From a virus, in the IMG/VR virus record IMGVR_UViG_3300035698_004130, positions 38,678-102,677 of that record: a stretch of DNA of 64,000 nt. One strand, given 5' to 3'. The translations under genes and the position numbers were made by a program. Each line of letters begins with the position of its first letter. The first letter of the stretch is position 1. The notes beneath the pieces were generated by a model. The model was not told where the DNA came from and ran no database searches. It was given only the letters and a program-made list of their open reading frames with translations. Below are positions 8,199 to 40,500 of the stretch, piece by piece.

Positions 8199-9131
8199 AT
8201 GATTGACATTGATGAACTAACCGTAGACGAATCCCTGGAACTTCTTGAGGGAATTACAAAGAAGCTTAATAAAATTAAGAAAGCAGGAGCCCAAAACTTC
8301 GGGGACCCAAAGATGGGAGATATGGTAAGCCAAGGCCAAAAGGAGATTAATAGAAATCCTAAGCCCGGATTTGGTGGGACTACCAAACGAAGGTCAGAAC
8401 ATAGACGTAAAAGAGGTGTGAAAAAGGCTCAGGAATCTCTTTTGAACTTTATCCAACAAGCTGTTAGTGAGGCTAATAAGGCTAACAAAGCTAAGAAAAG
8501 AAACTATGAGGGTAAGTCGGGTGCCGATATTATGTCCAAGGAGAAATTAGGAATTCATTCCTTGCCTGCTGGAACAAAAAAAAGAGCATTTGATGGCATG
8601 ATTAAATCCGATGCTAAGGGGGGAGGGACTAAAAATAGAATCCATCATGAGGCAGGAAGAAGGGCTGTTCACAGACAAAAAGCTCGCGAATCACTATTTG
8701 GAACAATCCATAACATGATTACCGAAGAGCAAGCAGATGACATTGAACAAGCCGGAGGTAGCCCTGAGGTTTTCAGAGCCACCAGAAAGGCCAAGCTCGC
8801 TCAAAGAGGTGTTCGTAAGTCTAAGCACATTTCCCGTAAGGATGCTTTAGGTAAGATGGGAGGAAGATATAAGAAAGATGGAACTCAAGCTGACAAGCAT
8901 ACTAAGTCAGGTGGAGAAAAGAACTTCTCGGATGATACCAAGAAGACTTCAGGTATTCCACTTAATCCAAAGGGTAAGCCTAAAAAGGGAAGATCAAGAG
9001 GAGACAAAGCTGACGTTAGAGGAAAGACTGTGAACACCTCACGTTCAACCGGAGAAGAAGGTCGTAAGGCTGATGCTAATGCAGACGCTTTCAGTGACCT
9101 AGTGGGTAACCTTAGCAAGAACAAACGCTAG
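8199..9131 (+). CDS. Lys/Arg-rich putative internal head protein
   Basis: Very basic modules separated by ESL...E linkers like those of the prohead protease extension; GTAAATA and GAGG upstream. Confidence 0.55.
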   Translation: MIDIDELTVDESLELLEGITKKLNKIKKAGAQNFGDPKMGDMVSQGQKEINRNPKPGFGGTTKRRSEHRRKRGVKKAQESLLNFIQQAVSEANKANKAKKRNYEGKSGADIMSKEKLGIHSLPAGTKKRAFDGMIKSDAKGGGTKNRIHHEAGRRAVHRQKARESLFGTIHNMITEEQADDIEQAGGSPEVFRATRKAKLAQRGVRKSKHISRKDALGKMGGRYKKDGTQADKHTKSGGEKNFSDDTKKTSGIPLNPKGKPKKGRSRGDKADVRGKTVNTSRSTGEEGRKADANADAFSDLVGNLSKNKR

Positions 9132-10228
9132 AGTTCAAACCTAACTCCATTACCGAAGGAACTGCCGACTTCAATATCAACTTCAAGGGGAGCCTTTAGT
9201 TCGATATTGAAGTTTTTTCGCATGTAGGTATAATTCCTAAGTTCATCAGACATGATTTGAACTGCTTCCCTAGTTTCTTCCTTGGGACACACAATTTCAA
9301 TGGAGTCGTGAACCGTCCCTACTACCTTTCCTCTAAATCCTCTATCCTTAAAAGTCTTCACAATGGATAGTAGACCACAAAGTAGGATATCATTAGCAGG
9401 AGATTGGATGGTAAAGTTCAGTCCCTGCCGGTAGGCTTCCCCCCTAATCTTCTTGAAAGGAGAATTAATGTTTGGAAGATTACGGTATCTACCAAAGATC
9501 GTCTTAGCATAAGCAAACTGCTCAACATACTCCTTAACCGTGTTCATATAGATTGGAACACCAGGGAAAGCTTCCATCCAACTATTGATGATCTCTTCAG
9601 CAGCAGCTTCTGAGATGTTTCTCTTAGCAGCTAGAGTGTATGCTGTTCCACCGTATACCGTAAGGAATGAAACTTCCTTTGCGATCTGCCGTTCTTCAGG
9701 GGTAATATCCTCAGGATCTTTCTTAAACGTAAGAGCAGCAGAGTAGGTATGAAGGTCCACTCCAGACTCAAAGGCTTTAATCATATTCCTTTCATTAGCT
9801 ACATGGGCTAGAACTCTAAGTTCCATTGCCTTCATGTCAACCGTAATGAAATCCCATCCAGTTGGAGCTACGATAAAGTCTCGGATGTTTACAGCAAGGT
9901 CTTTCTTCTCTCTAGGAAGAGTGTGGAAAGATACTCCAATCTTGGAAGCCTTTCCTCCACCCTTTCTAATGTTGGCACCAGAGTTTGATAATCTACCTGT
10001 TACCGTTCCATCAATGTTGTAGTTGGCGTAAATCCTACCATTTTTAGTATTCTCTAGGGATTGCTCCACTCCAACAATATAAGTGTTGTAAAGCTTTGAG
10101 AGTTTCTTAAACTCAGAAAACCTATCAAAGAATAGTTTAGCATCTTTCAACTTATCATCAGAGATAGTTCCCAAAACACTATTGGCGATATCAAGCTCTT
10201 CTTGCTTATTATACTTTTTCGCTGCCAC
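9128..10228 (-). CDS. polA: Family A DNA polymerase, palm/fingers subunit (split gene, part 3)
   Basis: TVTGRLS, motif A DMKAMELRVLAH, DLH, motif B RQIAKEVSFLTVYG, NFTIQS, motif C VHDS. Confidence 0.92.
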   Translation of the reverse strand: MAAKKYNKQEELDIANSVLGTISDDKLKDAKLFFDRFSEFKKLSKLYNTYIVGVEQSLENTKNGRIYANYNIDGTVTGRLSNSGANIRKGGGKASKIGVSFHTLPREKKDLAVNIRDFIVAPTGWDFITVDMKAMELRVLAHVANERNMIKAFESGVDLHTYSAALTFKKDPEDITPEERQIAKEVSFLTVYGGTAYTLAAKRNISEAAAEEIINSWMEAFPGVPIYMNTVKEYVEQFAYAKTIFGRYRNLPNINSPFKKIRGEAYRQGLNFTIQSPANDILLCGLLSIVKTFKDRGFRGKVVGTVHDSIEIVCPKEETREAVQIMSDELRNYTYMRKNFNIELKAPLEVDIEVGSSFGNGVRFEL

Positions 10229-10745
10229 TGAAACCTCTCTTTACATATTCCTTATCAACAAGCTCTTTCATCTTCATTAAAGTTTCATCATTAGTTGCAG
10301 GCTGATCCTTTGTAGTGTAGGCGAATGGATACAGCCCAAATCCAGACTCGTCATTAACTTCCCACTCCTTATCCTTGTTCTTCCTTAAAGAGAATAGAAC
10401 TTGGCACAGTTGCTGGTTTGAGGCAAGGTTCGTCCCCTCAGGGATTCTGGGTGAGGACATTAGGTAACTCTCTACCTCTTGAATCTTCTGTGCCAGTTGA
10501 TCCTTAATCTCTGCCAGCTTATCCGTATCAATAAGCATTCCCTCAAACTCAATATCACGGAAGACTACCGAGAGAGGTGAGATCAAGTTTAGGTATAGAT
10601 TCTCCAGGTTCTTTTTCTGAATCTCTTCGATGAGCTTCGCATAGACCTTTACTGTGTAGTAAGTGTCCATAGCGTTACCCCGAAGGCAAGGCATCATCTC
10701 AATGTTTGCCCAGTCGAACTTGGTGTTGTTTTCAACGGTTAGCAT
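10209..10745 (-). CDS. Family A DNA polymerase, ExoIII plus thumb subunit (split gene, part 2)
   Basis: GNAMDTYYT (ExoIII-like), IEFEGMLID, NLASNQQLCQVLF, PATNDETL thumb motifs. Confidence 0.85.
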   Translation of the reverse strand: MLTVENNTKFDWANIEMMPCLRGNAMDTYYTVKVYAKLIEEIQKKNLENLYLNLISPLSVVFRDIEFEGMLIDTDKLAEIKDQLAQKIQEVESYLMSSPRIPEGTNLASNQQLCQVLFSLRKNKDKEWEVNDESGFGLYPFAYTTKDQPATNDETLMKMKELVDKEYVKRGFSGSEKV

Positions 10746-11797
10746 TACTTGATCTTATCCAGGGGGAAGTAGTAGTAAACTAGGTCTCTCAGACCCTTGG
10801 GAATACCTTCAAGGTAAAGATGTTGCATAAGCTTTGTATCCCACACATGTTTAACGTCTACCACTCCATACCGTAGCAGGAACTTCAAATCGAACGTTGC
10901 ATGTTGGAAGATCTTTCTATTATTGTCGTTTGCCAGGACTAAGGAAACGAACTCCATAATCTTTGCCTTAGTCTTATATGAGAACTTAGCTTCCCTATGA
11001 TCGATAGGCATTGCTACTGTCTTTGCAACAATGATGTTCCCACGCTTAAACTCATCCAAATCCAACATTGAGAAAGAGATGGTATGAAGTCTATGCTCTA
11101 GGAAGTTCAACCCTTCAGTCTCCACATCAACAGCAATGGGAGCTTTTGTGGTATAGAACTCCACATGCTTCTTAATATCCTCTTCGCTTTGAATAATATC
11201 AAAATCAATCGGAACTAGAACATCCTTCTCATTGATGATGCTGTTTACAGCATTCTCAACATCCTTGGAGAAGAGGTAAGCATTCTTTGGTTCAGATACT
11301 ACCTGCCATGGATGCATGACGGATACCAGACTAAAGGTGAAGCCATCCTCTAGTTGCATCTCCTTAGCTTTGCCTCTGACAGTAGTATCCTTCTTATTCT
11401 TACCGTAGAAAATAGTAGTAGCTAGTTTACCACATGCAAATACTAAAGTAGGCTTAAACTGTGCAATGGTGTCTTCCAAGTGAGCCATGCATTTCTTTCT
11501 AGAAATTGGGTCACTAGTGTCCATGGTCATTCCTGGGCACTTCATTGCAGTTGTGAATCCAACCCTATCTGTTGAAATGCCAAGCCTCCTAAGCTCAAGC
11601 TTGATGGCTCGATACTCATTTGGCCTGAAGGCTGTGTAAGAACCCTCATGCATTTTGGGAGCATCGGAGACAAATAAGATCTCTTTTGGTTCCTCGAATT
11701 CGTAGTCTAAAATTGTTCTACGGGGGAGAGGCTTCTTAAGTATAGGGCAACCCTCACACTTAGGATTCTCTTCGTTAAATAACTTATCTAGATCCAT
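10745..11797 (-). CDS. Family A DNA polymerase, UDG4-like domain plus 3'-5' exonuclease ExoI/II (split gene, part 1)
   Basis: CEGC...ILFVSDAP...KC...C...KP.LVFACG...HP (SPO1-type UDG-like domain); AVDVETEGL (ExoI), HATFDLKFL (ExoII), WDTKLM. Confidence 0.85.
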
Positions 11798-12266
11798 ACA
11801 CGTTTATTAAATCTCTTGCCCATTCCAATAAATCCTCTACTCTTTTCCCAGAAGGTTGGGAAGTAGACCATAACTCAAGATTGGATAAGGTATTATCATC
11901 CCTAATACCATTTTTATGGTGAACATTTTCATTTGGAAGTAATTTTCTTCCAAGATGCTGTTCCATAATAAATCTATGCTCAAGCATATTTTTTACCTTA
12001 CCATTGTCATTAACAGAAAATCTAACATACCCAGCACCAGTTAGATGCTTACCCTTACCAAAGTTTGGATGGGTAATTCCCTTGCGAAGTTTAAAGCACC
12101 CACAAGATTTCTTATTACCTGTGGTTATATGGGAGCCAATGGATTTGAAGGAATCCCCACAGTGACACTTGCACTCCCACACAGCTAGACTCTTCCCTTT
12201 AAAGGAAGAATCGTCTACGACTAAATACTTAATAAAAGTGATTCCATTAACAATTTTACCCACCAA
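11784..12266 (-). CDS. free-standing HNH homing endonuclease
   Basis: [14 protein letters not shown]-terminal domain; [31 protein letters not shown]; start codon uncertain. Confidence 0.9.
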
Positions 12267-12353
12267 ATCCTTAACTTTCCTATTTGATTGTCTATACCCA
12301 ATTACACTGAGTATATAATGTAGTAAAAAAGGTTATGGACTTAAGAAGGAAGA

Positions 12354-12362
12354 CTATAATAG
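12354..12362. promoter_or_regulatory. palindromic CTATNATAG element (candidate bidirectional -10)
   Basis: CTATAATAG between divergent HNH and gp55 genes, 5 nt before ATG 12368. Confidence 0.55.
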
Positions 12363-12367
12363 ACCCA

Positions 12368-12724
12368 ATGAGTAACTACATTAATAACAAGAGATTCGAG
12401 GAGCTTATCCAAGAGCGCAAGGCAGGGGATAATACAAACGAAGAGGAGCTTTTCCAATTGTTTGATATGCTCATCGACCGACTAATGGTGACCTACAAAT
12501 TTAAGGTAGATCATGAAGAAGCGAAGCAGGAATGCTTTCTTCTAATCCTAAAGGTGCTAAACAACTTTAAGAAAGAATCAGGGGCAGCATTCAACTACTT
12601 CACTACAGTAATACTAAACAACTTCCGACTCCTCTATACGAAGAATAGAAAGTATGCTGAGAAGATTGAGGCTTACAGGAACATTAAACAAGGTGGCTAT
12701 TCATCTTCTTCAATGGATGAGTAG
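12368..12724 (+). CDS. gp55: Late-transcription sigma factor (T4 gp55-like)
   Basis: NYINNK..F....AFNYFTTVILNNF resembles gp55 region 2; likely start MSNY at 12368 (track starts at 12335). Confidence 0.75.
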   Translation: MSNYINNKRFEELIQERKAGDNTNEEELFQLFDMLIDRLMVTYKFKVDHEEAKQECFLLILKVLNNFKKESGAAFNYFTTVILNNFRLLYTKNRKYAEKIEAYRNIKQGGYSSSSMDE

Positions 12725-12886: not shown

Positions 12887-13270
12887 TTAAACTCCGAGTT
12901 CCGCACTGATCCCACCATTGTATGTTACAATTCTAGGGAAAGCCTTGTGCAAGACTACCAGCATCGGGAGACTGGAGTAGCCTGATAGGCAGGAAGTAGA
13001 AATGGTCTCCTTATATTCCTTGATTGAGGAACGAATCACACCCAAAGCATTTGGGATGTTGAAAGTATCAATCACGTTAACCGCAGACTTAGTAAGTTCC
13101 GGGTGAGTTGAAAGGAGACCTTTAAAGACCTTGCAAGGGTCGTCCCACTCATTTACAATTAAGTAGTAGGATTTGTTCTTCTGCTCAATGTTGTCCTTAA
13201 TCGTTGCATCTAAATGCTTCGAGGACAACATATCGTTCGCAAAGAACTTTGCGGACATTGGGTTACTCAT
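12887..13270 (-). CDS. thioredoxin-fold-like protein with degenerate active site
   Basis: LIVNEWDDPCKVF (cf. WCGPCK), VNVID, SLPMLVVL (cis-Pro strand), YNG. Confidence 0.45.
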   Translation of the reverse strand: MSNPMSAKFFANDMLSSKHLDATIKDNIEQKNKSYYLIVNEWDDPCKVFKGLLSTHPELTKSAVNVIDTFNIPNALGVIRSSIKEYKETISTSCLSGYSSLPMLVVLHKAFPRIVTYNGGISAELGV

Positions 13271-37550: not shown

Positions 37551-40500
37551 TAGACTAATACCTCAACTTCATCAAGGGCGGCTGGGTAGCCAACGGATGC
37601 GAATGCTATTTGAACTCTACTATATGATTCTATAAATTGTCTGTAGTCTGCTCTTGAGCCATTAGTATCAGCGATTAGGTAGGGATGATCTGAATCATTT
37701 GCAACTCTCGATGCTTGCCCTCTAAGGGCTCCTGCTCCTCCAACGATTTTATTCCAGAACTTGAATATTCCTTGAACTTGGGATTTTGAAGTTGGAACAC
37801 GTATAGGGTAACAATCGTCAACTGCAATAACCTCTGAGCGTTGCTTGAGGGTTAAGTCCTGCATTTTGATTGAATCAAGAAGCATAAACTGTTTTGGTTT
37901 AGCTGAGTTCGGAATCATGAACAATTCTACAACATAGCTTTGATCCTTCCTGTGTAGTTGCCCAAAGGCTTTAAGATATTCGTTGTTTAAGATTTGTTGT
38001 CTATTATCTGTAGTGAAAGTAAACTTTAGATTTTGGAAGTCAGCTTCCTTGATTCCCACAATTGGGGAAGAGGATAGAACAGTATTGTTAGCAAGGTAAA
38101 TACATTCAAATGTAGTTGCTTCCTCCTCAAGCTCTTCTTGGGTCTTCTCTCTTAGTGGAAGGTGGAATAGAGTTGAGTAGCTTACTACTTCATCCTGCTT
38201 TATAATTGCAGGGTGTTGGACCCAAAATCCATCTTGGTTGAGACTCCACATCCTACCCAGTTCAGGCTTAGTGTGAACCCAGACTCCAATGGTTCTATCC
38301 CCAAACTTCTGGCCCTTGAGTTCTGTAACTAGTAACTTAGCATCAACCTCAAACTTATGTTCGGGCAGTAGGAAGTTCTCAGTGATTGGGTAAGAAGCAG
38401 GGGAAGAGTGCTTCTTCATGTCCATTCTAATTCTACCAAACCCATCTAGTGATCTATTCTGGATGAAGGTTCGATTATACATGTAGTCGTCATCGGTTGA
38501 GGACTTTCCTACAGGATCAATCTTAAACACTTGGAATCCATTATCCTCCGAGATACCGGAAGTTTGGATAAGCTCAACAGCATCAATAATACCTGAGTTA
38601 ACATACTCAAAGGTGTCAACATACATGTCATCGCTACTACTAGCAATATACACTCCGGCACTACTAGCTTGGAATCCATTTTTATTATTTAGATTATCCA
38701 AGGCAGATAGAGATGCAGTTACAAACCCTGCCGCACCTAGAGTATCAAACTCACTGTTATACAGGAGAGGCCCAAAGGTGTGAGAGTAAATGTTAGCACC
38801 ATCCTGGTAGTGCATATGATCGGATAATTGATGCCTAGCAAAATGGGTTGTGTAGTCCTTGTAGAAGAGATGGAATTCCTTCCCAAACCCAAAGTTATAG
38901 AAATCGTTGACGCTTTCCGGGAACCATCCGTCAGACTCTGTAGCAGAGTTTGCGTATGCTTGATACACATTTCTAACCTCTAGGGCTTCAGTTGTTGCTG
39001 ATCCATAAGCAGCAGAAGCTTCCCAATACTTTATGTCTTCCTTTAGAGAGTGAATGATAGCATAGAATTCTGGTAGCTGGCATCTATCATTGTGCCAATC
39101 AACAAGACCTAAACCTGTGTGCCCTCTTCCTATAAGAGCATCGCTAACTGTGTAGCCGTAGAAGGTTGAGCTAGAGTTGATACCCTGGCACACTGAGTAT
39201 ACCGCAGGTAAGTTAACATGGTCTGGAATGCTTTCAAAGCTTAGTGAGCTAGGAATGAATCCCAAAGGAATCCCACTCAAGCCTGAAAGCATGTAGTGGG
39301 ATGTAGGCATGTTAAACCCTGTCCTATCGTAATAGCCATTCTTGGGAGCTAGCTTCTCATAGGATCTTCTTCTTAGGGAATATCTACTTAGGTTTGAAGC
39401 ATTATTTGAGGCGTTGGTGTATAGAGGATCCATACGGCTAACCAAGTCCTTACGGGAGAAGGATCCTGCTGCCCCACCTAAACCTCTTTTGAATGAGGAA
39501 ATACTAATTCCAGAAGTGATCCAGTTCCTACAGTAAGATCCACCGTCAGCTTCGTCAACTGATGGCATAACCATGGGCATGGCCGAAGATTGGAAATTAA
39601 TGTAGTCTACTGTTGATAGGGTTAGACTAACTAAGGGAATTGAGTGAGCCGGAACAAAGGAATTTAATACCTTGGAAGCCAGCACGACTGCATCCCCAGA
39701 ATCAATATCGTCTGAGTTCTTCTTGGTGAAATCAAACTCGGAAGCATCAAATACTAACTTGAAGTGAGACGACTTACCCGACCATAGGGAAGCATACTCA
39801 AAGTTCTTGTTATTAAGGTTTAGGATAAGGTTGTTTAGGTTTGGTGGACTGTTATACCCAGAAGTGAATAGCAACCAACTTGAAGTTCGGGGTTCTTCAT
39901 CAACCTCCAAAGCATTGGTTGTTACGAAATCTTTAAACTGAAAAGCAAACAATTGGTTGACTCCAAAACATACAAGTCTATCTGTGATGAAATCAAGCAT
40001 CTCCTTCGTCATTTCAACATTGACGTAGTATGGATATTCTTCGAAGGGAGGGATAGGATAAACCTTTCCTCTGTAGCGGAAACCGTCTTCTTGGTTAGGG
40101 ATATTGAATGCTTCCGGGAACTTCAGGAAAGTCTCGTAAAGGATTCTATCCGTAGCGTGCTTAACATTATCATCCATGCTGGATGCAGAGTAGCCAACCA
40201 CATTCATATATGCTGCAATATCTGGATACCAGTTCTGGAAGGATTCAAAGTAGACTGATTCTGTAGCTAGTGAGTAGTGAATCAGGAATGGAATGTAGGA
40301 TTCCCATAACTCTGTGATACGAGACTCAATACTGAAGATATCCTTGGGGAACACAGTATTAAGTGCGAATTGAACAGACTGCTTAGTTCCAACCTTCTTG
40401 TAAACTTCTACAGCATTCTTAAGTTGTAATCTCCATCTTTCTGGGTTAGATCCAAACAGATCCCATCCGATCAGATCCGCTAGAAGAGGTAGGAACTCGT

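Follow-up and report, generated by a model that had tools for sequence, protein, structure and literature searches.

In the 64,000-nucleotide window analysed here (the whole stretch of DNA covering positions 38,678 to 102,677 of the IMG/VR virus record IMGVR_UViG_3300035698_004130), a family A DNA polymerase (PolA) is encoded by three consecutive open reading frames (ORFs) on the minus strand. The record, of which the window is a part, is 102,677 bp long with an estimated completeness of 87% and derives from an uncultured T4-like phage found in salt-lake and marine samples. Its virion genes are of the T4 type and include a major head protein 29% identical to that of T4-type phages, a sheath protein and a prohead protease. 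The three ORFs, termed parts 1, 2 and 3 in the order of the protein, and the two junctions between them are arranged as follows.

10745-11797, minus strand: part 1, 350 aa, a uracil-DNA glycosylase (UDG)-like domain followed by the exonuclease domain up to the Exo II motif
10743-10747, minus strand: junction 1, TAATG, in which the TAA stop codon of part 1 and the ATG of part 2 overlap by 1 nt and the frame shifts by -1
10209-10745, minus strand: part 2, 178 aa, the last exonuclease helix with the Exo III Asp, a connector, the first long thumb helix and the thumb tip
10209-10237, minus strand: junction 2, a GAGG motif (10234-10237) 5 nt ahead of the GTG of part 3 (10226-10228), with the TAA of part 2 at 10209-10211 and an overlap of 20 nt
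9128-10228, minus strand: part 3, 366 aa, the second long thumb helix, the palm and the fingers

Parts 1 and 3 share one reading frame and part 2 lies in the -1 frame. In Pfam, part 1 corresponds to UDG plus DNA_pol_A_exo1, part 2 to a weakly matched N-terminus of DNA_pol_A and part 3 to positions 58-380 of DNA_pol_A. The PHROG 17 profile is matched in order by part 1 (551-785), part 2 (797-922) and part 3 (927-1232), with almost no profile lost and no sequence added at the joints. An earlier reading of the DNA made from its letters alone (hereafter the sequence-only reading) had proposed three colinear polymerase ORFs joined by a TAATG overlap and by an overlap of 20 nt at which a GTG follows 5 nt after GAGG. 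Its coordinates are exact, the domains follow one another along a single profile, and both overlaps are present as described.

Assignment of part 3 to family A (Pfam PF00476) is supported by a score of 243.6 bits against a cut-off of 34.3 (4e-72), by the presence of motifs A, B and C, and by its alignment with three known polymerases (Bst, Taq and Klenow), which starts at the second long thumb helix and reaches the C-terminus. Parts 1 and 3 are only 23-33% identical to proteins of cultured phages, the nearest of which are of the SPO1 type, and neither tblastn with part 2 nor a DNA search gave a match in the INPHARED phages.

The part 2 profile aligns with Klenow residues 480-592. The first cut separates Exo II from Exo III, and the second parts the two long thumb helices from each other. 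The pieces were placed by BLASTP on an AlphaFold2 model of the unsplit relative P0126 (mean pLDDT, the predicted local distance difference test, of 87.8). Junction 1 maps to the loop that follows helix 316-324 and precedes the Exo III helix 343-370, and junction 2 to the turn of two residues that links helix 486-496 to the long thumb helix (499-525); hence the new chain ends lie between helices. In comparison with the unsplit protein, about 15 extra residues are found at junction 2 in part 2 and about 12 in part 3. The sequence-only reading had located the first break in the proofreading site and the second in the thumb, which agrees with this map, and had let part 3 start with the base of the thumb, which has to be corrected, as part 3 begins with the second long thumb helix.

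Conservation of the three-part layout

Logan contigs from four salt-lake sequencing runs span the region without a single difference or gap, and each junction is bridged by several of them. RNA data are absent from the sequencing runs listed as holding the sequence. The same three ORFs are carried by four IMG/VR contigs whose part 3 is about 70% identical, and the TAATG and AGAGG motifs are invariant across the window and the four closest IMG/VR contigs (5 sequences). A word-index search yielded 16 other stand-alone part 2 proteins of 145-183 aa and no longer protein containing part 2. An exhaustive profile search over 1.84 billion representatives returned about 100 stand-alone clusters of the middle piece (157-181 aa, nearly all starting at profile position 1) and did recover fused forms of part 2.

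The ORFs were analysed in 81 non-duplicate IMG/VR loci, in which part 2 is 27-57% identical; these were drawn from the search that gave the close contigs and from 80 loci returned by a pattern scan of IMG/VR with the part 2 profile. Junction 1 is found wherever the locus includes part 1 (78/81, the remaining 3 being cut off upstream), and junction 2 is present in all 81 but L084-L086. Altogether, 78 of the 81 loci have the three-gene layout of the window. Junction 1 is a 1-nt overlap in 50 of the 81 loci and junction 2 an 8-nt overlap in 55, and the overlaps of 1, 4 and 8 nt seen at junction 2 are those commonly found between translationally coupled genes. Both junctions retain a start codon (ATG, GTG or TTG), and 68 of 79 split loci have a Shine-Dalgarno-like motif ahead of part 3.

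Synonymous sites are near saturation, with proportions of differing sites of 0.5-0.87 for synonymous (pS) and 0.01-0.23 for nonsynonymous (pN) positions. For parts 2 and 3, the ratio of nonsynonymous to synonymous rates (dN/dS) is 0.01-0.09 in pairs with unsaturated synonymous sites, and part 1, saturated in every pair, has a pN of 0.07-0.23 against a pS of 0.77-0.87. On these sequence comparisons, all three are working genes under strong purifying selection. In L084 (3992-5482), an in-frame TGA follows residue 92 of part 2 and the same frame reopens directly and holds the part 3 match; this could represent a different cut, a recoded stop codon or an error.

Between parts 1 and 2, 23 loci of the 81 have an insertion of 274-1565 bp. 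In L009 it contains an HNH_3 endonuclease gene and in L085 a glutamine-synthetase-like gene, and elsewhere several ORFs lie there on the opposite strand; no insert was ever seen in junction 2 among the loci examined. Two-part proteins served as the queries of a second IMG/VR scan, which gave 80 loci; parts 2 and 3 are fused into a single ORF in 79 of them. Part 1 was found in 73 loci of this set and is a separate gene in all 73. In most cases the distance is 0.1-3.7 kb and is taken up by other genes, among them glutamine-synthetase-like and ThyX-like ones. The first cut is common to about 160 loci.

These observations bear on three ways in which the split might be only apparent. Indels can occur in metagenome contigs, and an assembly or sequencing artefact, or a decaying gene, would break an ORF into pieces. 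However, the contigs of four runs are identical over both junctions, the layout recurs in dozens of independent metagenomes and strong purifying selection acts on all three ORFs, so that the chance of an artefact or of decay is negligible. Ribosomal frameshifting (-1 at junction 1 and +1 at junction 2) or another form of recoding could in principle yield one fused polypeptide, since parts 1 and 3 share a frame, part 2 is one base off and both junctions overlap. However, there is no conserved slippery sequence and the bases ahead of TAATG vary among relatives, whereas start codons are kept at both junctions and Shine-Dalgarno-like motifs precede most part 3 starts. Moreover, whole genes, some on the opposite strand, lie between parts 1 and 2 in the 23 three-part loci and in most two-part loci, which excludes frameshifting, RNA splicing and inteins at junction 1, and a fused product is very unlikely overall. 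Joining of the pieces by a group I intron, a split intein or trans-splicing draws on the frequency of introns and inteins in phage PolA genes, as in the unsplit P0117 with its HNH-bearing intein, yet we give it next to no credence. The overlapping junctions leave no intervening sequence. Fractured genes with split inteins (PMC2677866) offer no parallel either, as the termini hold too little unmatched sequence (about 6 C-terminal residues in part 1 and no N-terminal ones in part 2) to accommodate intein halves. A search of region 8900-12500 against Rfam gave nothing meaningful, only a chance miRNA match. The claim of a split with neither intron nor intein therefore holds, and the layout is kept in relatives.

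The order of the two cuts was addressed with a maximum-likelihood tree of the region spanning parts 2 and 3 (55 rows, LG+G4 model). It was obtained by a short search, has its root on unsplit UDG-PolAs and contains several long branches. In this tree all split forms make up one clade, with a support of 100 in the Shimodaira-Hasegawa-like approximate likelihood ratio test (SH-aLRT), with the two-part forms branching at its base. A branch with a support of 74, within a clade of support 97, has the three-part forms on one side, and a minimum of 2 changes of state is needed. The second cut is thus restricted to a derived clade. This topology fits an old fission at junction 1 and a later one at junction 2, and a single origin of the second cut appears likely.

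Catalytic residues and probable assembly of the pieces

The residues that define the active sites were located in the window and compared across 17 sequences for part 1 and 15 for part 3.

11126-11128 and 11120-11122, minus strand: Exo I, codons of D224 and E226 in part 1, invariant
10889-10891, minus strand: Exo II, codon of D303 in part 1, invariant
10665-10667, minus strand: Exo III Asp, codon of D27 in part 2, invariant and aligned with Klenow D501
9836-9838, minus strand: motif A, codon of D131 in part 3, invariant
Minus strand: motif B, R180, K184, F188, Y192 and G193 in part 3, invariant
9305-9310, minus strand: motif C, H307-D308 in part 3, invariant

The four carboxylates of a DEDD 3′-5′ exonuclease (Pfam PF01612) are therefore all invariant and spread over two polypeptides. 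Because Exo I and Exo II lie in part 1 and the Exo III Asp in part 2, where M1, L2, G23, N24 and D27 are the invariant residues, the DEDD site is divided between two chains, and by this reading of the alignment it must be built from both. The UDG-like domain occupies residues ~13-170 of part 1 (Pfam PF03167, 29.3 bits against a cut-off of 24.3). The four iron-sulfur cysteines typical of family-4 UDGs are conserved: Cys87 and Cys103 are nearly invariant, and an N-terminal CxxC is present in most sequences. The catalytic GEAPG is replaced by SDAP or SDS, which makes glycosylase activity doubtful; the domain is probably structural rather than an active glycosylase.

The explanation that we consider quite probable is that the locus encodes a UDG-like/exonuclease/family A replicase that underwent two successive fissions and whose pieces, made from three coupled cistrons, reassemble noncovalently. 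An ancestral UDG-like/3′-5′ exonuclease/polymerase would have been broken twice. The resulting cistrons are translated separately, with coupling where the end of one gene overlaps the beginning of the next. The older cut separates Exo II from Exo III and has become an ordinary gene boundary, at which inserted genes accumulate in relatives; the younger one lies in the turn that leads into the second long thumb helix. Of this account, the layout, its conservation, separate translation and purifying selection are shown by the sequence data. Without covalent links, the three polypeptides would then come together into one enzyme, in which Asp, Glu and Asp from part 1 and the Asp from part 2 would form the proofreading site, and one helix from part 2 would pair with one from part 3 to form the thumb. 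In co-folding of the three chains, part 2 scored 0.90; in a control with chain 3 replaced it scored 0.72, the retained chain 1 alone sustaining that score, so that the two scores count neither for nor against assembly. A heterotrimer is the most likely state of the products, as judged from the sequences. The 102.7-kb record contains neither a PolB nor a second PolA that could be found, and since the phage is T4-like, the split enzyme is probably its replicase.

We infer the mutual binding of the three proteins from an exonuclease site whose two halves complete each other, from thumb helices that pair across two chains and from conservation, and their joint enzymatic activity is a prediction. 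Several points weigh against this interpretation. In every split form examined, the Exo III Tyr (Klenow Tyr497, four residues before the Exo III Asp) is replaced by an invariant Gly, so that these enzymes are not of the DEDDy type, while the Tyr-x-x-x-Asp of Exo III is kept in the three unsplit relatives that were read (P0126, P0145 and P0161). With this Tyr lost, proofreading may be weakened or may work differently; in Klenow mutants, loss of Tyr497 reduces exonuclease activity without abolishing it. Motif C reads HDS and not HDE, the second acidic residue being replaced by Ser. Finally, the record is 87% complete and another polymerase gene could lie in the missing part.

The loss of the Exo III Tyr also lends something to a different view, in which parts 2 and 3 constitute an exonuclease-free polymerase and part 1 an independent UDG-like/exonuclease-like protein outside the enzyme. 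In many relatives part 1 lies up to 3.7 kb from the rest, and its dosage and timing could differ. However, the fourth DEDD carboxylate is missing from part 1 and is an invariant residue of part 2, and Exo I and Exo II in part 1 are invariant as well. Keeping both halves of the exonuclease intact is sensible only if they form one site, and part 1 stays beside the polymerase genes in all loci. An independent part 1 is hence improbable, and the reassembled three-chain enzyme is preferred.

Genes within and beside the split polymerase

Two genes upstream of part 1 may bear on the origin and the composition of the enzyme.

11784-12266, minus strand: free-standing HNH_3 homing-endonuclease-like gene, overlapping the start of part 1
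12890-13270, minus strand: thioredoxin-fold protein, upstream of part 1, without CxxC (the site reads WDDPC)

The HNH_3 gene is absent from the position before part 1 in all relatives. Its sole homologue among the loci of the three-part scan is 40% identical and sits exactly in junction 1 of L009 (3400-4017). The presence of related HNH_3 genes at two different edges of the polymerase gene suggests a homing endonuclease family that targets polA. Insertion of an endonuclease gene is a possible cause of the first cut, for which L009 is the single supporting locus; the junction 1 inserts of the other loci are genes unrelated to HNH_3. In the polymerase domain of the unsplit P0117 (950 aa, no UDG head), a conserved Gly-Arg motif ahead of motif A is followed directly by an intein that has an HNH-like insert; hence inteins, too, target this PolA group.

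The remaining inserts at junction 1 are diverse. A glutamine-synthetase-like gene of about 320-360 aa is common between part 1 and the fused part 2-3 gene of the two-part clade, sometimes together with a ThyX-like gene.

L085:3045-4007 (matching Pfam Gln-synt_N and Gln-synt_C), L108:3950-4975, L121:4033-5004, L136:1258-2271 and others: glutamine-synthetase-like gene

Opposite-strand inserts in L044, L045, L051, L062, L065, L075 and L084 encode a family of small basic proteins without a Pfam match, with an N-terminal motif of the form Y-E-x-I-G-E-S-I-W-N-T-Y, and L084 holds three tandem copies. The minus-strand inserts of L047, L050, L060, L067 and L074 encode a protein of 166-207 aa with a lipoprotein-like signal (LSSCSTIKH), a hydrophobic middle and no Pfam match. 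About 20 nt before the ATG of part 2, at locus positions ~3980-4000 in L044-L084, a conserved near-palindromic motif, CTATTATATATAG, is followed by 2 nt and an ATG. It is present wherever junction 1 holds an inserted gene in the second three-part clade, and the two start codons that flank it diverge and are only some 30 nt from each other. Possible explanations are a late-type promoter, from which an almost leaderless mRNA would be made, or the terminus of a mobile cassette.

The thioredoxin-like gene at 12890-13270 had been proposed in a separate first-reader note, and both its AlphaFold2 model (pLDDT 77) and a PDB fold search, in which the top matches were all thioredoxins, agree with that proposal. 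An iterated hidden Markov model (HMM) found homologues at 81 loci of the L001-L087 set and at 65 of the 80 two-part loci (146 in all), upstream of part 1 wherever positions are listed (for example L048:2289-2627 and L092:2121-2507). WCxxC is retained in some two-part phages and the cysteines are lost in most members, including that of the window. A first HMM had hinted that the gene tracks the second cut, an idea that was dropped once the iterated HMM detected it at 65 of the 80 two-part loci. It can be speculated that the protein is an accessory subunit of the polymerase. A more specific role, as a fourth, processivity subunit gripping the enlarged or split thumb of the three-piece polymerase, is a tentative idea that we regard as rather unlikely. 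Were it true, a T4-type phage showing no PolB would possess a T7-style PolA-thioredoxin replicase made of four small proteins.

On the other side of the polymerase, between thyX and part 3 and on the opposite strand, 8199-9131 (plus strand) encodes a very basic protein of 310 aa without a Pfam or PHROG match.

Comparison with known split polymerases

Family A polymerases are textbook single-chain enzymes and, to our knowledge, the only published split in the family is a cut at a domain boundary. Here, cuts through the proofreading site and the thumb are kept across a large and abundant group of aquatic phages, and the passage from an unsplit gene to two and then three genes is a clear case of an essential enzyme undergoing gene fission step by step. 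That the chain can be interrupted at both sites is of use in engineering split or conditionally assembled polymerases, and the system offers a natural setting for the communication between exonuclease and polymerase sites. For annotation, the practical warning is that "hypothetical" genes of 160-180 aa beside a truncated polA are polymerase subunits.

The sequence-only reading had stated that known split phage polymerases are usually intron-interrupted or two-part family B enzymes, which is outdated. Czernecki et al. (2023, PMC10201439) described a two-gene exo|pol fission in T7-like cyanophages, reported as the first PolA split, and the exo|pol split now serves as a marker of clade B (PMC12695635). 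The polymerases of the S-SBP1/S-TIP37 type resemble the present one in being family A phage enzymes that arose by gene fission into adjacent overlapping cistrons, with neither intron nor intein and with predicted reassembly. They differ in having one cut at the exo/pol domain boundary, in belonging to a T7-like cluster (5) and in a fission that the authors called recent (PMC10201439). The present polymerase belongs to the UDG-PolA-like subfamily and has two cuts, within the exonuclease domain and within the thumb, the first of which is old enough for many genes to have been inserted. A two-piece polymerase with a small ORF in the gap is also found in MEP401-type OM43 phages. A literature search, incomplete in coverage, turned up no description of a three-piece PolA or of a cut between Exo II and Exo III.

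Among T4-related phages, genes in pieces are represented by the gp43A/gp43B PolB of Aeromonas phages 25 and 44RR, the mobE-split NrdA of Aeh1 and gp39/gp60 of T4 (PMC2988022). There, too, essential replication enzymes are made as separate reassembling polypeptides, and free-standing homing endonuclease genes occur at or beside the splits (PMC2988022). These cases are a two-piece PolB, ribonucleotide reductase and topoisomerase, whereas the present one is a three-piece family A enzyme in which the HNH gene lies in junction 1 of L009 only and beside the gene in the window. The single-chain UDG-PolAs (N4-like cluster 17 and the SPO1, SP-10 and SP-15 type; PMC10201439, PMC13697223) share the family-4 UDG-like head, the DEDD exonuclease, the Pol I-type polymerase and a Phe at the sugar-selectivity position of motif B. 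Unlike the split forms, they are one polypeptide and keep the Exo III Tyr, and identity to the cultured members is the 23-33% given above. T7 gp5 with host thioredoxin is likewise a family A replicase with extra thumb sequence and the involvement of a thioredoxin-fold protein. The T7 partner is, however, supplied by the host, whereas here the putative partner is encoded by a phage gene upstream of the polymerase and mostly lacks CxxC. Two-gene fission of PolA was thus already known, and what is added here is the order of the fissions, an HNH gene at the first cut in one relative, the loss of the Exo III Tyr in all split forms and a conserved upstream gene of the thioredoxin fold.

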